A stretch of 64,000 nt of DNA from positions 160,001 to 224,000 of the forward strand of contig CAXXUA010000013.1 of assembly GCA_963663765.2 (NCBI GenBank), written 5' to 3'. The DNA is from Candidatus Poribacteria bacterium (lineage in GTDB: Bacteria; Poribacteria; WGA-4E; WGA-3G). Below are positions 16,885 through 53,738 of the stretch, piece after piece (positions within the stretch are counted from its first letter, which is position 1; the number at the start of each line of letters is the position of its first letter). The notes below the pieces were generated by a model. It saw only the letters and a list, made by a program, of their open reading frames with translations, was not told the origin of the DNA and searched no databases. Made by a program: the position numbers and the translations under genes.

Positions 16885-19485
16885 ATGACATTTAGTATTA
16901 TGAAACAGACAAATTCTTCAACCAATAAGGCAACTACTAAACTTTCAGAGAAAATACCAAATAACAAAAAGGGAAAAGAAAATCCCTCAAGCAACATAAG
17001 ACCTAATTCAATGGAAGCTGGAATTCTAAAATTGTGGGCATCCAGAAAGGTGTTTAAAATTGCTGAAAAAACGAAGGAATTACCCACTTTTGTTATTAGA
17101 GAGATGCCGATCCCTGTAGATTCGCTAAATGGTAATACTCTTAAGAGTAAAATCTCGCAAGATATCTTTCTAAAGTACGAAATTATTCATGGAAACACAG
17201 TTGCTTATGCCCCAATATGGGAAACATTTCCCTTCAGTATAGAGGTTGATATAATTAAGAAAGATATCCATACATCTTCACGTAACATCGTAAATTTTAG
17301 GAAACAATGTAGACAGTTATACAGTAAACAGTTGAAATCACAAATGAATCGTTTGCAGAAACTTGGAATATTTGCAGATTGGACCACCGCTGAAAAAACA
17401 TTAGAGGCACGCTATGAAACCAAACTCTTTAGTTTTTTTGATAGAATGCGAGACTCAAGATTCCTACGCGATGAACTGAAACTCAGTCATTGGTGTCCAC
17501 AATGTATATCACCTTTAGAAGCTGGTAAAACCGCTAAACCTATAACTACTAATGCACAATTTACTTATGTAAAATTCCCTCTAAATAGCGGATTTGAAGA
17601 ATTCGGTGTAGAAGTCTATTTTGCAATGGGACTGCCATCTTCTCAATTATGGGAAATCGCTGGAACAATTGCAATTGGAATTTATGAAAAAACTCAGTTT
17701 TATCTTATAGAATGGGAAGACCAATATCTTATAATAGCTGAACCACAACTAAAGAATTTTTTTAATCAAGATGTAAAAAAGAAGAAAAAGACAAAAACCA
17801 ACAAAAAACAGCTATTAAAATTTAATGCTTGTCTTTTAAAAGACTGCACGCTTTCACATCCATTATATTCACTACCAGATCTGCACTTTTTTGTTATACC
17901 TGAGGAAATAATTGACAGCATTTCCAACTCCTCTGAAAAACAGGAATTAATGAATGGAATTGTTCATTTGAACCCTGCACATCATGTATTGAGTTATAAC
18001 ATCTGTAATAAATTGTCTGAAATCAGAGAATCCATTCATACAAGATTTGAGTCTTCATCTTCTTTCACACCAATATTTGATGAAGTTGGACGTTTTACTG
18101 AGGAAGCAGACACATTGTGTGGAATAAATTTAAACAATGCAATGCAGTATATCACGGATGAATTGGAAGCACGCGATTGTCTTATTAGAACGAATAAACA
18201 AGAGATTGAACAACTTCAGTGTGAACACTGTGATGGTTTATCTGTCTCTCGACCTTACCGTCACTGGGTTTTTTCAGCCACTTCTACTGATATTGTTGAA
18301 GAGGTTACAACGTCACCAGAATATTGGGAACACTACAACGACAACTTACGCGATGAAATTAAGACACAAGTCCTCAATATCTCTGATATGCAGATTTCTT
18401 CTCAGCGACAGTGGGGTATCCCTTTCCCAATTCTTCGATGTGACAATTGCAACCATCTCATTACAGACAAAAAGATTCTACGAGCTGTGAGAAGTTCCAT
18501 CCGAAGAGGTTCTGAACACTGGTTTAGACTCAGTGTAGAAGAACTACTTCCAACAGATACTCAGTGTGAAAACTGTCACTCAAAAGATTTTAGAAAAGAA
18601 TCAACTTATATTGAGAGTCATTTCGCTAACTTACTACAAACGCTTGACATCTCAGACTTTAAAAAGTCTTCAATAGATACGACAACTAATGTTGTCTTTG
18701 CACCACGATCAGCTTTCTTGAAATGGTTAGGGGAATTAAGTGTATTATCCGCATCATTACAACTCAGTCGTCCATCTAAAGAAAGTCATCCTTTTAAGCA
18801 TCTGAATCTTAATAGTTTTGACGATTGCAACTGGGATCCAGAAATTGAGGATAAATACTTAGAGGAATATCCAGCAGATGTAATCAGACTATTCTCCGTT
18901 TCAACAGATTTATGTCAAGTACCTTCTGAAGTTGACAAAACACAAACACTTCAAGAGATAATTGATCATACTAATAAAAAATATAATAAACTAAGAATTG
19001 TTTTAGATCAGGTTGTTGCATACAAGAACAATCAAAATAAAAAACCTGATTCCAATAACGATTTATTTTTATCAGATCTGTCAAATGAAAATGCTGCAGA
19101 CACCTTAAGTGAGCATGACATTCTTATAATCACAATGACCAATCAACTGCTTCGTGACATACAGGACGTTTACAAAAAAAGAGATTTCTTTATGATGTGG
19201 CGGATGATTTCAGACTTTTGTGAAATAGATCTATTGGTGTATATTGACTTATGCCAAGAAAATGATTCAGATTCTGCGAATATTGTACTTCCAGTGATAT
19301 TCAAAGTCATTCTTCAATACTTAGCGCCAATTTTGCCTTTTTTAGCTGAACAGACATACACAAAGGGTTATTCTGCATCAAACAGTATTTTTGAAGAAAA
19401 ACTGGAGTGTCTACCACAAATCTTTGCTGATGAAAAGTCAATAGAAGTGTGGGATCTGTTTAGGAACAAGAAAAGTTCAAAGTAA
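16885..19485 (+). CDS. Degenerate isoleucyl-tRNA synthetase-like protein lacking catalytic motifs
   Basis: IleRS landmarks kept in order (KLGIFADW, WCPQC, YVKFPL, VHLNPAH, ISSQRQWGIPFP, YPADVIRL, LAPILPFLAE); no HIGH or KMSKS; lies between yggT and lspA. Confidence 0.85.
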   Translation: MTFSIMKQTNSSTNKATTKLSEKIPNNKKGKENPSSNIRPNSMEAGILKLWASRKVFKIAEKTKELPTFVIREMPIPVDSLNGNTLKSKISQDIFLKYEIIHGNTVAYAPIWETFPFSIEVDIIKKDIHTSSRNIVNFRKQCRQLYSKQLKSQMNRLQKLGIFADWTTAEKTLEARYETKLFSFFDRMRDSRFLRDELKLSHWCPQCISPLEAGKTAKPITTNAQFTYVKFPLNSGFEEFGVEVYFAMGLPSSQLWEIAGTIAIGIYEKTQFYLIEWEDQYLIIAEPQLKNFFNQDVKKKKKTKTNKKQLLKFNACLLKDCTLSHPLYSLPDLHFFVIPEEIIDSISNSSEKQELMNGIVHLNPAHHVLSYNICNKLSEIRESIHTRFESSSSFTPIFDEVGRFTEEADTLCGINLNNAMQYITDELEARDCLIRTNKQEIEQLQCEHCDGLSVSRPYRHWVFSATSTDIVEEVTTSPEYWEHYNDNLRDEIKTQVLNISDMQISSQRQWGIPFPILRCDNCNHLITDKKILRAVRSSIRRGSEHWFRLSVEELLPTDTQCENCHSKDFRKESTYIESHFANLLQTLDISDFKKSSIDTTTNVVFAPRSAFLKWLGELSVLSASLQLSRPSKESHPFKHLNLNSFDDCNWDPEIEDKYLEEYPADVIRLFSVSTDLCQVPSEVDKTQTLQEIIDHTNKKYNKLRIVLDQVVAYKNNQNKKPDSNNDLFLSDLSNENAADTLSEHDILIITMTNQLLRDIQDVYKKRDFFMMWRMISDFCEIDLLVYIDLCQENDSDSANIVLPVIFKVILQYLAPILPFLAEQTYTKGYSASNSIFEEKLECLPQIFADEKSIEVWDLFRNKKSSK

Positions 19486-20718: not shown

Positions 20719-21846
20719 ATGGCAAAACGCAGAGAACTTATTCTTTCAGAAGAAGAAAGACAGAAATTGATTAAATACAGAGATCATCACCCCCGGCCTG
20801 ATGTCAGAGAAAAAGCTGCAGCGTTGTTGAAAGTAAACGATGGTATTCCTGCACACCGGGTTTCAAAAAGTGGGTTACTCAAACGCCGCAAGCCTGATAC
20901 TGTCTACAGATGGTTGAATATTTATGAAGAAGAAGGTTTTGATGAACTCATACAGCGACAACATGGTGGAGCAAGACAACGATTTTCAAAAAAAAAAGAA
21001 GAAGAACTATTAGAACGTGTGCGCCAAGTCCCTGCTGAAGTTATGGATAATGCGAAAGTTGTTTCTACTGATGTGCCTCCCCCAAATCGTTGGACGCTTC
21101 GGACACTACGTGCGAGTCTTGATTGGTTAGAAGGATACAGCCTGAGCGGTGTTCATAGAGTGCTGTCTCGTTGTGGTTTGCGTCTTCGCTCAGGTCGCGT
21201 GCAGCAGTATAGTCCGGATCCTGAGTATAAGGAGAAAGTGTTGCATTTGTGTTCCTGCTTACAGCAGACCATTGGCAATCGTGGTCAACAAGAGTTGGTA
21301 TTTCTGGATGAGATGGGATATACTCGTTGGCCTGAAGCGGGGCGTGTTTGGACACAAGCACCGCCGGAAAGTATTCCTGTGGCAAGTTGTGATGGAAATA
21401 ACCAGCAATGGCGAATTATTGGTGCACTGAATGCGTTGACAGGGCAGGTCTGTTATCTTGATAACTACATTGTAGGACGTGCGAAAGTGATTGAAATGTA
21501 TCAGAAGTTGACACAAGTATATCCACAAGCAGAAATACTTTATGTTGTTCAAGATAACTGGTCTATTCATAAACATCCAGATGTGCTTGATGCGTTATCA
21601 GAGTTACCACAGATCAAGCCTGTTTGGCTACCGACCTATGCACCGTGGTTGAACCCGATTGAGAAGTTGTGGAGATGGCTGCGTGTAGACGTGTTTAAGA
21701 TGCATCGCTTTGCGAGCCAGTGGGAGGAGTTCAGGGCCCGGGTGAACGGATTTCTCGATCAATTTGCAGACGGTTCGGAGGACTTACTCCGTTATATAGG
21801 ACTGAAAGGCAATGGTCTAATAGCAAACGCTTGTAGACCTGTTTAA
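20719..21846 (+). CDS. IS630 transposase, single ORF
   Basis: HTH; FLDEMG, VVQDNWSIH, LPTYAPWLNPIEKLW. Confidence 0.95.
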   Translation: MAKRRELILSEEERQKLIKYRDHHPRPDVREKAAALLKVNDGIPAHRVSKSGLLKRRKPDTVYRWLNIYEEEGFDELIQRQHGGARQRFSKKKEEELLERVRQVPAEVMDNAKVVSTDVPPPNRWTLRTLRASLDWLEGYSLSGVHRVLSRCGLRLRSGRVQQYSPDPEYKEKVLHLCSCLQQTIGNRGQQELVFLDEMGYTRWPEAGRVWTQAPPESIPVASCDGNNQQWRIIGALNALTGQVCYLDNYIVGRAKVIEMYQKLTQVYPQAEILYVVQDNWSIHKHPDVLDALSELPQIKPVWLPTYAPWLNPIEKLWRWLRVDVFKMHRFASQWEEFRARVNGFLDQFADGSEDLLRYIGLKGNGLIANACRPV

Positions 21847-48928: not shown

Positions 48929-49822
48929 CTAAAGAATTGAACGCAGATATTGATAATTTCGTTTTGCACTTTCAAATGGACTACCCATACCAGGTAACAC
49001 GTCCTGTTCGACGACGATCCAACCATCGTAATTCTGCTTATGTAGTTCTGCTATGATAGCGGGGAAATCAACTTCTCCTTTACCCAGTTCACAAAAAACT
49101 CCGTTCCTTACAGACTGAAAGTAATCCCAGTTTTCCCTACGAGATTTGGTGGCGATTTGCGGTTGACAATCCTTGAAATGCACATGCCATATACGGTCTG
49201 TGTGCATTTCAAATATATCAAGTGGGTCACCACCACCGAATCGGTAATGTCCAGTATCAAAACACAATCCAACCAAGTCGGGATCCGTACGTTGCATCAA
49301 TGTGTCTACTTCTTCTATTGTTTCAATATATCCTGCACAATGATGGTGAAAGACTGTTCGGAGTCCAGTCTCGTCCCGCACGGATTGTGCGATGCGATGC
49401 ACACTCCGCACAAAAATATTCCACTGCTCCTGCGTCAAGCCGTGTTCAGCACTGATGCGTCCTGCATTGTGCGTGCGTTGTTCTACAGTTCCATTATCAT
49501 CTGAAAGCACGATAAAAGCGTTGTTACCTCCAGCTTCTGCTAATAAACATGCATGTTGTAGTGCTGATTTCTCACCCGCTGCGTGTGCATTTGCTTCTGC
49601 TAATGCAACGGGAACGAAAGCACCTAACAACATTAACTCTCGTGCTGCGAGTTCGTCGTGGAGTTGAGCGGGGTCTGTCGGCATAAACCCCCAATCTCCT
49701 AATTCGGTGCCGCGATATCCGATTGCTTGCATTTCGTCTAATACTTGGGTGTAGTGTGGTGATTTACCTTGTAGATCGAATTCAAGTACTCCCCAGGAGC
49801 ATGGGGCATTTGCGATTTTCAT
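48929..49822 (-). CDS. IolE-like inosose dehydratase / sugar-phosphate isomerase TIM barrel
   Basis: IANAPCSWG, GTELGDWG, FHHH, DTGH, HVHFKD, VVEQD. Confidence 0.85.
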   Translation of the reverse strand: MKIANAPCSWGVLEFDLQGKSPHYTQVLDEMQAIGYRGTELGDWGFMPTDPAQLHDELAARELMLLGAFVPVALAEANAHAAGEKSALQHACLLAEAGGNNAFIVLSDDNGTVEQRTHNAGRISAEHGLTQEQWNIFVRSVHRIAQSVRDETGLRTVFHHHCAGYIETIEEVDTLMQRTDPDLVGLCFDTGHYRFGGGDPLDIFEMHTDRIWHVHFKDCQPQIATKSRRENWDYFQSVRNGVFCELGKGEVDFPAIIAELHKQNYDGWIVVEQDVLPGMGSPFESAKRNYQYLRSIL

Positions 49823-49868
49823 TGTGTTATCGGTTCTCATCCTTTTGAATAAGACATAATTTAAACGT

Positions 49869-50903
49869 CTACTTTTTTGTATCAAACTCAAAATCTCCGT
49901 TAATTACATCTTGTATGATTTTCCCTCTCCTTATACGGTTTGTCCTACTATTAGTTCCCTGAAGAGCAGAGTTATGATACTCCATTATTTGGCGATGTTT
50001 TTTTGCAAAATCTTCATCTGCTTTACCGGATTTATTAACTAAATCATAAAAACGTAGGAGTCCTTTTCCAACTTCTGCTGGTTTAGCGTTTATTTCTTCT
50101 CTGAATAATGCGCGGTGAATCTCTACGATCAGAGTGAATAAATCTGACTTTCTCCAGGCGCGACTTTTTTCTGGGATGCCACACTTTTTTATAAACTGAA
50201 AGACCTCTTCAAATTGAGTATTTAGATTGTGTTTTTCTTCAAATTCATCGTTGTATTGCCTAAGATAATCTTCAAATTCACTCTCTAAACTGAAATAAGT
50301 TGACATCACTGTAATTATCACAGACAAAGCAAATGAAACATCCCTCATACGCCTAATATCAGTAGAACTGAATACTCGATGCTTTCTAAAAAAAGAATCT
50401 TGTGAAAGCCTATCTGCGAATTGTTTTATTTCTCCATCATATCTTGCATTGTGAATCTCCATAGCATTTAGAGAATAATTTGTTGAGTTAATCCGTTTAA
50501 AAATTTCCTTTATCTCGCTAATACTTGTTTGACCTAAGTCTCGAACAACAACTAAGTAATCATAGAAACTTATTTTTTCTTCATCACTAAGTTTTGCGAA
50601 TGGGATTACTCCACCTGACAGCTTCAAATCTTTAGAAGCATCAACATACTGTTTCAGCGTAGTCAACCTTTGTTGACCATCTACTAACATTTCTTTCGCT
50701 TCTCCAGTATCAGGATTTACTTCACCCGCGGCTATATATATTTCAGGAAAAGGATAACCTCGTAAAACTGTATCAATAAAAGCACTCTTGTGTTTATTGG
50801 ACCACACCAAGCGTCGTTGGAACCCAGGATCTGGCACTAAGGTTCCAGTTCGGAGGCCATTCAAAAGACTGTGGATTCTTCTAGGGCCTGCTGCTACCTG
50901 CAT
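49869..50903 (-). CDS. DUF262 (GmrSD-N, ParB/Srx-like) protein without a nuclease domain
   Basis: PGFQRRLVW, VDGQQRLTT, IFKRINS; 344 aa; no HNH/DUF1524 motif. Confidence 0.9.
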   Translation of the reverse strand: MQVAAGPRRIHSLLNGLRTGTLVPDPGFQRRLVWSNKHKSAFIDTVLRGYPFPEIYIAAGEVNPDTGEAKEMLVDGQQRLTTLKQYVDASKDLKLSGGVIPFAKLSDEEKISFYDYLVVVRDLGQTSISEIKEIFKRINSTNYSLNAMEIHNARYDGEIKQFADRLSQDSFFRKHRVFSSTDIRRMRDVSFALSVIITVMSTYFSLESEFEDYLRQYNDEFEEKHNLNTQFEEVFQFIKKCGIPEKSRAWRKSDLFTLIVEIHRALFREEINAKPAEVGKGLLRFYDLVNKSGKADEDFAKKHRQIMEYHNSALQGTNSRTNRIRRGKIIQDVINGDFEFDTKK

Positions 50904-51483
50904 TATTTTCCTCCAAGTTATTTATGCATTCCTGTATACTAATTTTCTGATAATTCTCTAAAAAGAAATATGATCTATATAATGCACCTCTAATTTTATA
51001 ATCACCATATCTTCCACTCCTTGTAACACTCTGAAAAAAATTCCACCATTTTTCTCTTAAATCAAAAATAGACGATTGAGGTAACTTATCAGGTCTTATC
51101 CACCCTCGAAAGAGATAATTAGCAAATTCTCTATATTCGGGCCAATATGGACCTTCATATAGATAATTGTACACGTCTTTCCAAAATTGTTCGAATAACG
51201 TTGAGGATACTATGGCGACATCAATGTCAGAATTATCACTGAATTCACGGTACCGATTTTTAGGTGCAACACTAAAACCAAGCTTTGCTGAACCTACTAC
51301 CAAGACTTGATTTGGATGCAAACCAAAGTTTTCAGCAACTTCTGAACGCAAATCAAAATAGTCTTGATGAGATAAAATACAACATTCTCCGAAAATAATG
51401 TACTTTCTCACTATCTGAATTGATGAAAATTTATTTAAGTCTTCCTTAAATTGATTGAGTCTTTGCTCTACTTCATTATTCAT
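50881..51483 (-). CDS. DNA polymerase beta-superfamily nucleotidyltransferase
   Basis: VVGSAKLGFS...SDIDVAIVS (hGS...DxD); overlaps the DUF262 gene by 23 nt. Confidence 0.8.
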   Translation of the reverse strand: MNNEVEQRLNQFKEDLNKFSSIQIVRKYIIFGECCILSHQDYFDLRSEVAENFGLHPNQVLVVGSAKLGFSVAPKNRYREFSDNSDIDVAIVSSTLFEQFWKDVYNYLYEGPYWPEYREFANYLFRGWIRPDKLPQSSIFDLREKWWNFFQSVTRSGRYGDYKIRGALYRSYFFLENYQKISIQECINNLEENNAGSSRP

Positions 51484-51535
51484 TCTATTGTCCTTAGAGA
51501 ATTTGAACCAAAAATGATACTTCAGACAACATAGA

Positions 51536-52108
51536 TTACGTACAATCTTGTTTCAGCTTTGAAATCTTATCAAAATCTTGGATTGCGGACTCCAAATTGT
51601 CCATTCGTAAGTAAGTCATAGCACGTTTAAAGTAAGCATCTGTGAAGGTTGGAATTAGTTTTATTGCCTCAGAAAAATCTGCAATAGCCTTGTCATACTC
51701 ACCTATTTTCACGTATATTTTACCGCGCTCTTCGTAGATTTCGGCATCATAGGGACGGAGTTCAATCTCCTTGCTAAATCCTTCAATTGCCTTGTCGTAC
51801 TCACCTCGTTCACCGTAAAGGGCCGCGCGAAAACCCCACGCATCAGCATGATCTGGATCAAGTTTAATTGCTATGCTAAAGTCAGCAATTGCCTTGTCAT
51901 ATACCCCTTTCTCATCATATAGTTTTCCACGAGTATAAAATGTCTCAACATCATACAAGTTGAAGTCTATTGCTTTGGTAAGGTATGTGATTGCATTATC
52001 AAAATCGTTTTTTCTTATGTAAGTTTTTGCACGTGTGTTGTAGAATGTGACGAGATTAAGTTTCAGAGTTTCAATATTATTTTTCGCATTAGTATCTAAT
52101 AAGTTCAT
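51536..52108 (-). CDS. TPR repeat protein, five repeats
   Basis: 34-aa repeats of the form RG..Y...G.YDKAIADFS.AIKL.P. Confidence 0.93.
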   Translation of the reverse strand: MNLLDTNAKNNIETLKLNLVTFYNTRAKTYIRKNDFDNAITYLTKAIDFNLYDVETFYTRGKLYDEKGVYDKAIADFSIAIKLDPDHADAWGFRAALYGERGEYDKAIEGFSKEIELRPYDAEIYEERGKIYVKIGEYDKAIADFSEAIKLIPTFTDAYFKRAMTYLRMDNLESAIQDFDKISKLKQDCT

Positions 52109-52132
52109 TGTTTACCTCAATTTTACAGGTGA

Positions 52133-52161
52133 ATTATAACACAACACATACAACATAGCAA
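52133..52161 (-). promoter_or_regulatory. Promoter of the TPR-NTase-DUF262 operon
   Basis: TTGCTA-17 nt-TATAAT with extended TG. Confidence 0.65.
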
Positions 52162-52319
52162 TTGGTTTCTGTGATGCAAAAACACACACAGAAATGCAAA
52201 CATCTGTTATACTGCAACAATCGGAAGTCCTAACATTCAACACCATTAGAAAAGGACCGGCATTTTGGATGTTTGAAGGGCAAACTTTTTGGCCATGGGA
52301 CGGTTACAACATGCCATAG

Positions 52320-52616
52320 AAACGTCTCGGACTGCCAACGGATGTTGCTGCATTGGTTTCTAAACTAACTACCGACACAACTGAATTGGAGTTGGTAAAC
52401 CTTAGCATATCTGAAGCACGTGATGTGATTGTCCAAGCTGGTTCAATGGGTGAACACCATTTTACAACTGCCCGATTCAAAGAGGATAACGGTGATAACA
52501 CCGTTGCGGTAGACGGAACATATCTTCAAGTTCACTTACCACCGAACACGCATATTGTGTTAGCAGTGGGAATGGAGCGTTTTGTTAATGCACCTTCGTA
52601 TCAACTGCCATGGTAA
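52320..52616 (+). pseudogene. C-terminal remnant of a larger hypothetical protein
   Basis: KRLGLPTDVAALV...LVNLS...QAGSMGEH...RFVNAPSYQLPW; no RBS or good start; in-frame stop just upstream. Confidence 0.55.
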
Positions 52617-52718
52617 TAGGCAAATCATCTTATATTTCTGGTGGATGTGTAATGTAGAAGGGGTTTTCAACCTTGATTTTGCACATGCAGTAGCAAGTAC
52701 AATTAGGAGGTAAAAATT

Positions 52719-53738
52719 ATGGCGACAGAGAGATACTTAACTGCAGAACAGAGTGTACAACAACTCCTGAAAACAACGCCACCGCTTTACTTCAATGGAA
52801 ACCCAACTAAAACGGAGTGGAAAGAATGGCGAAGGAAGTTCAAACGTAACATCGCTCGGTACCTAGGTCCAAAACCTGATGCAGTGCCGTTGGAAGTAGA
52901 GATATTAGAGAAAATAAGACGAGATGGTTACACAAGAGAAAAGATAATTTTCAATCCTGATGCATTCTCCTCAATTCCAGCTTATGTCTTAATTCCAGAC
53001 AGCGCAAACGCGGACACCCCCGTACCAGCAGTACTATGTGCACACGGGCATGGCGTTGGTAAAGACGGGGCAGTCGGTATAGTTGATGACTATCAGAAAC
53101 AGTATGCTGTGGAACTCGCAAAAAAGGGATTTGTTACCATCGCACCAGATTGGCGATGTTTCGGTGAAAGGTTAGATAGAGATGCGTGGGTTCGCCGTCC
53201 GGGTAGAGATGGGTGTAATGCTGCGTATTTCGCACTTGGGTATTTCGGTTATCAACTGCTACAACTCAACATTTCTGATGGACAACGTTGTTTGGACTAT
53301 CTTCAGAACCGTCCTGAAGTGGATAGCAGTCGGTTAGGTTGTATGGGATGTTCGTTTGGTGGTACAATGACGACCTATATATCTGCTTTCGATCGGAGAA
53401 TTAAGGCTGCTGTTATTGTCTGTTATCTTAGCACGTTGACAGATGCGTTAGGTGACCGTGGACGTGCAAATACGTGTGGATCACAGTTCATGTTTGGACT
53501 TCGCGCAGCGGGTGATATTTCGGATGTAGCAGGACTTATCGCGCCGCGGGCATGTATGGTGCAAATCGGTTCTGATGACAAGTGTTTTATTGAGTCTGAT
53601 GCTTTGTCGGCATTTGAACACTTAGAGAAGATATATACCGCATGTGGTAAACGCGAAAGGTTAGTCTTGGATCATTTTCAGGGAGGACATGAGATTGATC
53701 TGCAACCTGGGATTGCATTTTTGGAAGAGCGATTGTAA
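52719..53738 (+). CDS. Alpha/beta hydrolase (dienelactone hydrolase / acetylxylan esterase-like)
   Basis: HGHG, GCSFGG nucleophile elbow, GGHE; AGGAGG RBS. Confidence 0.88.
   Translation: MATERYLTAEQSVQQLLKTTPPLYFNGNPTKTEWKEWRRKFKRNIARYLGPKPDAVPLEVEILEKIRRDGYTREKIIFNPDAFSSIPAYVLIPDSANADTPVPAVLCAHGHGVGKDGAVGIVDDYQKQYAVELAKKGFVTIAPDWRCFGERLDRDAWVRRPGRDGCNAAYFALGYFGYQLLQLNISDGQRCLDYLQNRPEVDSSRLGCMGCSFGGTMTTYISAFDRRIKAAVIVCYLSTLTDALGDRGRANTCGSQFMFGLRAAGDISDVAGLIAPRACMVQIGSDDKCFIESDALSAFEHLEKIYTACGKRERLVLDHFQGGHEIDLQPGIAFLEERL

Follow-up and report, generated by a model that had tools for sequence, protein, structure and literature searches.

Three neighboring genes on the minus strand of a Candidatus Poribacteria genome raise the question of which of them belong together and what they do. 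They lie in a stretch of 64,000 nucleotides (nt) (GenBank assembly GCA_963663765.2, contig CAXXUA010000013.1, positions 160,001 to 224,000), here called the window, and positions below are those of the window. An earlier note on this DNA had read the three genes as one operon and a candidate anti-phage system, made up of a protein with five tetratricopeptide repeats (TPRs), a Pol-beta nucleotidyltransferase, and a DUF262 protein. We found three same-strand open reading frames (ORFs), as that note had described: a TPR gene at 51536..52108 (190 amino acids [aa]), a gene that we call NT at 50881..51483 (200 aa, with a GS...DID motif), and a DUF262 gene at 49869..50903 (344 aa). We conclude that the functional unit is a two-gene NT + DUF262 module and not a three-gene TPR operon; the TPR gene is probably outside the module. 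The best reading of the pair is an undescribed DUF262-based conflict module that acts in defense or in a toxin-antitoxin-like way.

We scanned 185,579 genomes, one per species, for NT. The scan gave 153 loci that encode a relative, and 79 of these were kept for analysis. They span 15 named phyla, with 20 loci in Pseudomonadota, 17 in Poribacteria, 12 in Actinomycetota, 8 in Chloroflexota, and the rest in others. The neighborhood check that the earlier note had proposed gave a clear answer for these two genes, as a DUF262 homologue lies 3' of NT on the same strand at 78 of the 79 loci. The exception (L066) has no DUF262 gene, although 646 nt lie 3' of its NT. The stop and start codons overlap in 54 of the 70 intact pairs, by 4 nt in 17 pairs, 1 nt in 15, and 23 nt in 12. 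Among the other intact pairs, the gap is 0 to 15 nt in 14 and 16 to 40 nt in 1, and in L004 the genes are 3 kb apart, split by insertion sequence (IS) elements. In the window the two genes overlap by 23 nt, and a GGAGG ribosome-binding site within the NT gene (50910..50914, minus strand) stands 6 nt 5' of the DUF262 ATG, which agrees with the translational coupling noted earlier. Pairwise identities of NT and of DUF262 rise and fall together (r = 0.79; 2415 pairs). All-against-all clustering of the neighbors gave no third gene family common to multiple phyla. In a word-indexed protein collection, the NT family comprised 701 proteins at an E value of ≤1e-3; at 50% identity, it comprised 977 clusters at ≤1e-3, 352 at ≤1e-10, and 63 at ≤1e-30.

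The pair also moves between genomes. On the DUF262 tree the phyla are intermixed, Cyanobacteria with Ktedonobacterales and a planctomycete with Pseudomonadales. The GC content of the pair was lower than that of its flanks at 72 of 73 loci (mean difference, -0.118); a Streptomyces example has 0.51 in the pair versus 0.69 in the flank. A 6.2-kb Rop-type Cronobacter plasmid carries the pair among its few cargo modules. A Pseudoalteromonas megaplasmid carries a divergent pair, whose 197-aa upstream protein matches the NT profile (hhalign, 99.2%; 18% identity). We found copies broken by IS elements or frameshifts at L004, L032, L051, L059, L062, and L063. DUF262 was broken or missing with NT largely intact at four loci (L032, L051, L059, and L066) and the converse at none; in L062 and L063, both genes were damaged. 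A tblastn search found no NT homologues in phage records, and a blastn search with the Pseudomonas putida pair found no match in Escherichia coli genomes. On the strength of these sequence comparisons, we conclude that NT and DUF262 are strictly linked, translationally coupled, and horizontally mobile.

The TPR gene gave another picture. Its product does consist of tandem 34-residue repeats, with TPR_1 matching in five stretches (E = 6.9e-36), as had been said of it. A homologue lies directly 5' of NT at 13 of the 17 Poribacteria loci and in the window but at none of the 62 other loci, so that the linkage does not extend beyond one Poribacteria clade. The TPR-linked loci and the window form a single clade on the DUF262 tree, with a Shimodaira-Hasegawa-like approximate likelihood ratio test (SH-aLRT) value of 95, and a sister Poribacteria clade (L003, L005, L006, and L009) has no TPR gene. 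Within the TPR clade the gene order is abhydrolase, a 630-aa protein of unknown function, a small ORF, TPR, NT, DUF262, a TIM barrel protein, a GFO/IDH/MocA oxidoreductase, an ABC ATPase, and FtsX. Because both flanks are syntenic within one clade, one ancestral juxtaposition followed by vertical descent suffices to account for the link. We also found that the TPR-less loci L005 and L006 carry an extended -10 element, TGGTATAAT, about 85 nt 5' of NT, which the TPR-linked loci do not have. Common to all the Poribacteria loci 5' of the NT start are only about 25 nt, consisting of a T-rich run and AGGA.

In the window, a promoter-like site (TTGCTA-17-TATAAT with a TG extension; 52133..52161, minus strand) stands 5' of the TPR gene and is the top consensus match within 49600-52800. 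The earlier note had called this the promoter of the block. One good match thus stands, but the region holds 10 promoter-like matches versus 9.9 in shuffled sequence, so their count is not above that of shuffles. Between the three genes, the 52-nt TPR-NT spacer (51484..51535) included, a motif scan found nothing resembling a promoter or a terminator. Because the pair sits downstream of the TPR gene, it is probably read from the TPR promoter in this genome. The TPR gene would then supply the transcript here, yet it is probably not a conserved part of the module. The view of the TPR gene as a member of the system is thereby corrected.

The length of the TPR protein varies. It has 360 aa in L002 and about 190 to 220 aa in L001, L004, L008, L013, and the window, and the gene is split in L010. 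The window protein corresponds to residues 185 to 360 of the long form found in L002 and L031. Upstream of it lies what the earlier note had called a truncated gene, and this is a real gene remnant (52251..52613, plus strand). By tblastn against the 630-aa protein of L002, 52251-52316 corresponds to residues 178 to 199 and 52320-52613 to residues 533 to 630 (79% identity). Because the upstream DNA retains only these residues of the 630-aa gene, one deletion seems to have removed the 5' half of the TPR gene and most of its neighbor. The 630-aa gene is conserved in related Poribacteria, and the interval 52162-52718 of the window would be the deletion scar.

We then asked what the two proteins of the pair resemble. 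In the DUF262 protein, Pfam identified GmrSD_N at residues 11 to 155 (E = 1.9e-23) and no second family. No DUF1524, HNH, or other nuclease domain was found by Pfam, consistently with the earlier statement that the protein has no nuclease motif. Among the models of PADLOC-DB 2.0.0, the top match was NsnA of the Menshen system (8.5e-33), with residues 3 to 335 aligned to model positions 46 to 380 of 385; PD-T4-2_A matched at residues 19 to 96 only (8.8e-19). The protein also matched phrog_2598, a PHROG family of unknown function, over its full length (1.3e-35). In the PDB, weak sequence matches were found to two chains named "DUF262 domain-containing protein," 9jfl_B and 7p9k_A; we take 7p9k to be BrxU. 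The QR, DGQQR, and FxxIN motifs are intact, as reported before, and they are strongly conserved: FQR at 28 to 30, W34, VDGQQR at 74 to 79, F135, I138, and N139 are invariant in all 46 aligned DUF262 partners. So are R185, M186, D188, and E261 in the C-terminal part. A helical C terminus, as described earlier for this protein, is suggested by the full-length match to the NsnA model and is less firm than stated there. The DGQQR codons (residues 75 to 79; 50667..50681, minus strand) specify a nucleotide-binding motif, going by the role given to it in the passages on NsnA in PMC12065111.

DUF262 proteins of this kind occur with other partners as well. In an E. coli prophage (L081:2501-4212), we found a DUF262 protein of identical full-length architecture (hhalign, 99.7%) whose partner is a downstream 216-aa protein unrelated to NT. 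On an Asticcacaulis plasmid (L083:3486-5632), a DUF262 gene (tblastn, 97% of the query) is followed by an annotated protein kinase gene. Because the prophage and plasmid genes have other partners, an NsnA-like sensor type appears, as judged from gene order and homology, to have been reused with interchangeable partners, namely, NT, the 216-aa protein, and probably the kinase. The Asticcacaulis DUF262 and kinase genes adjoin PAPS-reductase-family and large ATP-binding genes.

As for NT, its candidate catalytic motif runs from G64-S65 to D86-I-D88 (codons at 51220..51294, minus strand) and is of the nucleotidyltransferase-like type hG-S...S-D-x-D. The earlier note had described the GS...DID motif as intact, and conservation agrees with it: across 78 diverse relatives (29 to 45% identity), S65, G69, D86, and D88 do not vary, and G64-S65 and S85-D86-x-D88 vary little or not at all. 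At an E value of ≤1, NTP_transf_2 was matched by 28 of the 78 relatives and Polbeta by 5, and all other listed families were matched by one relative each. The window protein also matched phrog_32008 (2e-12), a PHROG of unknown function, and 12 of 12 members of the family that were tried did so. In their sources, the relatives are named "hypothetical protein" or, by JGI, "predicted nucleotidyltransferase." An AlphaFold2 (AF2) model of NT had a predicted local distance difference test (pLDDT) value of 84 and a predicted template modeling (pTM) score of 0.82, with low confidence in the loop at 65 to 86. It places G64-S65 and D86-x-D88 at the ends of strands 60-64 and 87-92. NT therefore has the hG[GS] and DxD motifs on successive strands that mark the Pol-beta superfamily, and it lacks a family match at a curated score. 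Scanning all the ORFs of the window and the loci for the motif of MNT-like proteins returned NT alone. The GS-to-DID stretch of NT aligns without gaps to an AbiEii homologue encoded at L077, a lead only, given an hhalign probability of 0.36%. From motif and conservation, we consider it plausible that NT is a nucleotidyltransferase, with the balance tipping slightly in favor. A search for longer forms found P0282, a 373-aa protein on a 1369-nt contig, with HisKA/HATPase_c histidine-kinase domains attached to a complete NT domain; it is either a real fusion or the product of a chimeric contig.

The surroundings of the pair were surveyed at the 62 non-Poribacteria loci, taking genes no more than two positions away; the counts are raw. 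Pfam covered 212 of the 213 neighbor ORFs, and PADLOC covered the first 150, which came from 43 loci. By a tally of Pfam names, neighbors of the restriction-modification, TIR, HEPN, SoFic, Schlafen, HNH, Mrr, or AbiEii type occur at 19 of the 62 loci, a count that falls to 16 without the uncertain L019, L060, and L078. Transposase, integrase, resolvase, relaxase/type IV secretion system, phage tail, CI repressor, or pSAM2 replication genes were found at 13. Together, defense-type or mobile-element neighbors occur at 29 of the 62 loci. PADLOC matches to a helix-turn-helix protein in L027, an ABC ATPase in L033, and a metallo-beta-lactamase in L052 were set aside as generic. A family of C5 DNA methylases recurs at seven loci. 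In L065 (3963-7606), the genes for a Dcm methylase, a SmaI-like enzyme, NT, and DUF262 follow each other on the same strand, spaced by ≤44 nt, and L071 (3976-7592) has NgoPII, a Dcm methylase, NT, and DUF262 in such an arrangement, likewise spaced by ≤44 nt; at both loci the two enzymes form a type II 5-methylcytosine restriction-modification pair. Because the neighborhoods often contain defense or mobile-element genes, a conflict or defense role is the best reading of the pair. The defense proposal of the earlier note thus survives for a linked, mobile two-gene module, without the TPR protein as a component.

In a Chloroflexia metagenome-assembled genome (MAG) (L032:8168-9514), a TIR-TPR protein that PADLOC assigned to ThsB (7e-51) is encoded about 500 nt 3' of the pair. 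It is the only TPR protein near the pair outside Poribacteria, and the DUF262 gene of that pair is frameshifted.

We compared the pair with the known systems. According to the passages of PMC12065111 that describe it, Menshen consists of NsnA, the ABC ATPase NsnB, and the effector NsnC, and NsnA carries QRxxxW, DGxQR, and FxxxN motifs together with a C-terminal nonnuclease domain. The DUF262 protein here matches NsnA over its full length, shares this motif set, and has the combination of DUF262 with a C-terminal ParBDB. Its partner, in contrast, is the upstream 200-aa NT. NsnB (AAA_15 + DUF3696) was absent beside the window pair and among the Pfam-covered neighbor ORFs of the 62 loci, and no third gene conserved across phyla was found that could stand for NsnC. 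The consulted main text of PMC12065111 makes no mention of a nucleotidyltransferase, Pol-beta, TPR, or two-gene forms, and it describes DUF262-centered systems as "not limited to" those that it names.

PD-T4-2 and Dazbog are two-gene systems whose DUF262 protein has no His-Me nuclease, as outlined in parts of PMC10952713 and PMC12065111, and the pair is like them in having two genes around a DUF262 protein without DUF1524. PD-T4-2 differs, since component A was matched partially and NT had no PADLOC match, so a full match to components A and B fails. The suggestion that the two-gene core might be related to Dazbog found no support. No Dzb model (DzbAB) was matched in PADLOC by DUF262 (E ≤ 1) or by NT (E ≤ 10), and the best match was NsnA of Menshen; the PADLOC-DB release used presumably includes Dazbog models. 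With GmrSD, BrxU, and SspE the pair shares the N-terminal DUF262 NTPase domain with DGQQR, but it has no C-terminal DUF1524 His-Me nuclease, and the protein has 344 aa versus about 590 aa. Because the DUF1524 domain is missing, the pair is not a GmrSD-type enzyme.

On the NT side, MNT-HEPN (type VII toxin-antitoxin) and AbiEii/MenT modules likewise involve small hG[GS]...DxD proteins in two-gene conflict modules. They differ from the pair, which has no HEPN or AbiEi partner and is instead built around DUF262; the window NT, moreover, matches neither NTP_transf_2 nor AbiEii in Pfam, and its model has no fold match. CBASS differs in that NT has no PADLOC match and there is no conserved effector gene. 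We rejected GrwAB of Vibrio cholerae as this pair, since it consists of two DUF262 proteins. No full match to a described system was thus obtained. We found no description of an NT-like + DUF262 pair in the literature covered, which does not include the supplements of the Menshen paper, where more DUF262 systems may be listed.

How might such a pair work? By analogy with GmrSD, SspE, and Menshen NsnA, DUF262 would be the sensor. DNA would be bound through its ParB/Srx-type NTPase domain (QR, DGQQR, and FxxxN) and the NsnA-like DNA-binding domain at its C terminus, and the protein would switch state upon binding and hydrolysis of nucleoside triphosphate (NTP). Because DUF262 has no nuclease and the only other candidate catalytic motif is in NT, the effector role would fall to NT. 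As a divergent nucleotidyltransferase, NT would modify a tRNA, a protein, or a DNA end. It would act, perhaps in a physical complex with DUF262, once the sensor detects foreign DNA, and the invader or the infected cell would be stopped; a protective phenotype of this kind would make the pair a defense system. That the two genes form the core of a conflict module of some kind, either for defense or toxin-antitoxin-like, seems to us somewhat more probable than not. The division into a DUF262 sensor and an NT effector, drawn by analogy, is tentative. More doubtful still is the full proposal that NT founds a new nucleotidyl-transfer family with a predicted fold unlike solved ones, acting as effector for a ParB/Srx-type NTP switch in an undescribed defense system that has spread horizontally through at least 15 phyla and would modify nucleic acid or protein once DUF262 senses foreign DNA.

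A number of results weigh against these proposals. The Pol-beta assignment of the earlier note held at the level of the motif and went no further. The window NT had no Pfam, NCBIfam, or PADLOC match even at an E value of ≤10. Matches of its relatives to NTP_transf_2 scored 16 to 21 bits and were confined to the SDID strand, and one relative only reached the curated 21-bit cutoff. A Foldseek search of the PDB and BFVD with the NT model returned nothing at an E value of ≤1e-3 (best TM score, about 0.3), and NT-family profile searches of PDB sequences returned nothing usable. In the diverse set of relatives, we found no third catalytic carboxylate at ≥90% conservation. The sole NT-DUF262 fusion (P0133 at L056, from a MAG) looks frameshifted near the NT C terminus; we rejected it as strong evidence because of that junction, and the search that found P0282 gave no other. 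Clear PADLOC defense neighbors were found at only 7 of the 43 loci covered (L022, L032, L035, L046, L048, L050, and L053). Many other neighbors are ordinary metabolic and translation genes. In the window, too, the pair is flanked by metabolic and ribosomal genes, and in many Poribacteria species it occupies a single conserved site on the chromosome, as defense genes less typically do. Finally, gene order and the pattern of decay suit an antitoxin role of NT better than an effector role.

This last point leads to the alternative of a type VII-like toxin-antitoxin or addiction module. Here DUF262 would be harmful, through NTP consumption, DNA clamping, or nicking, and NT would nucleotidylylate it to keep it off until loss of NT or a phage signal releases it. 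MNT nucleotidylylates HEPN and so provides a precedent. The upstream, translationally coupled NT follows the usual antitoxin-first order, DUF262 was the gene lost or broken at all four of the loci where one gene had decayed, and a 6.2-kb plasmid keeps the pair as cargo. This 4:0 split is, however, not significant (p ~0.16), the DUF262 gene being 1.7 times longer, and frameshifts in MAGs account for two of the four. Pfam showed no nuclease or other toxic domain in DUF262, and the relevant parts of PMC12065111 and PMC10952713 describe DUF262 as an NTP-dependent sensor, not a toxin, in the characterized systems. We regard a toxin-antitoxin role as unlikely. A further alternative is a nonconflict, DNA-associated housekeeping or regulatory unit, such as a DndB-like regulator or ParB-like NTP switch carried with the restriction-modification genes that it controls. 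It would fit the unusually high conservation across phyla (mean pairwise identities of 0.48 and 0.43 for the two proteins), the stable chromosomal position in Poribacteria, the operon-like arrangement with methylase-restriction pairs in L065 and L071, and a weak DGQHR-domain match of DUF262 (9.5e-5, below the cutoff). Set against these are the patchy distribution, with 153 relatives in 185,579 species genomes, the strong and general AT richness, the IS-broken copies, and the fact that modification genes are not near most loci, and we consider such a unit distinctly improbable.

The three-component scheme of the earlier note assigns phage sensing to the TPR protein, production of a nucleotide signal or NMPylation of a target to the nucleotidyltransferase, and reading or degradation of the product to DUF262. 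It draws on the TPR gene standing directly 5' of NT in most Poribacteria loci and the window, at a spacing of about 55 nt in most TPR-linked loci and with no promoter- or terminator-like site between. But the TPR gene is missing from 62 of 62 non-Poribacteria and 4 of 17 Poribacteria loci, its presence in one syntenic clade takes a single event, and two TPR-less loci have a -10 element of their own. The protein itself varies between 190 and 360 aa, is split in one locus, and in the window is a C-terminal half left by a deletion. NT, having no PADLOC match at all, also has no cyclase or CD-NTase match. The GS/DxD motif is the one observation that speaks for a nucleotide signal made by NT and sensed by the ParB/Srx domain. 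We regard this scheme as very improbable. The two-gene conflict module is the reading that we retain.

The pair would add a compact two-gene form to the DUF262 systems, with a new partner family that lacks a Pfam model. DUF262 is the sensor in Menshen, Dazbog, and PD-T4-2, systems whose workings remain largely open. Strains of Pseudomonas, Shewanella, Vibrio, Streptomyces, and Paenibacillus that carry the pair can be cultured. Together with its small size and good conservation, this makes it directly testable whether the two genes act as sensor and effector or as toxin and antitoxin.

The block differs from its surroundings in composition. We found a GC content of 0.353 in the three genes; that of the whole window is 0.395, and the genes on either side have 0.456 and 0.455, in agreement with the earlier observation that the block is richer in AT than its neighbors. 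The GC content of the block is within the lowest 1.9% among equal-sized windows of the stretch. Low GC content alone is no island marker here, as the lowest-GC stretch encodes a class I aminoacyl-tRNA synthetase. We found no tRNA genes or convincing flanking repeats around the block. The 3' neighbor of the DUF262 gene, which the earlier note had called IolE-like, is a xylose-isomerase-like TIM barrel gene (Pfam AP_endonuc_2) with a likely ATG at 49822. On the 5' side of the TPR gene, the gene remnant is followed by a divergent abhydrolase gene.

Two further features of the window were observed. The lowest-GC stretch, at 16885-19485 (GC content, 0.34), contains a gene for an 866-aa protein resembling class I aminoacyl-tRNA synthetases; the match of the protein to tRNA-synt_1 (4e-25) is modest for its size, and the gene may be a divergent paralogue. 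A transposase gene (DDE_3, with an HTH_32 domain) stands amid housekeeping genes at 20719-21846.

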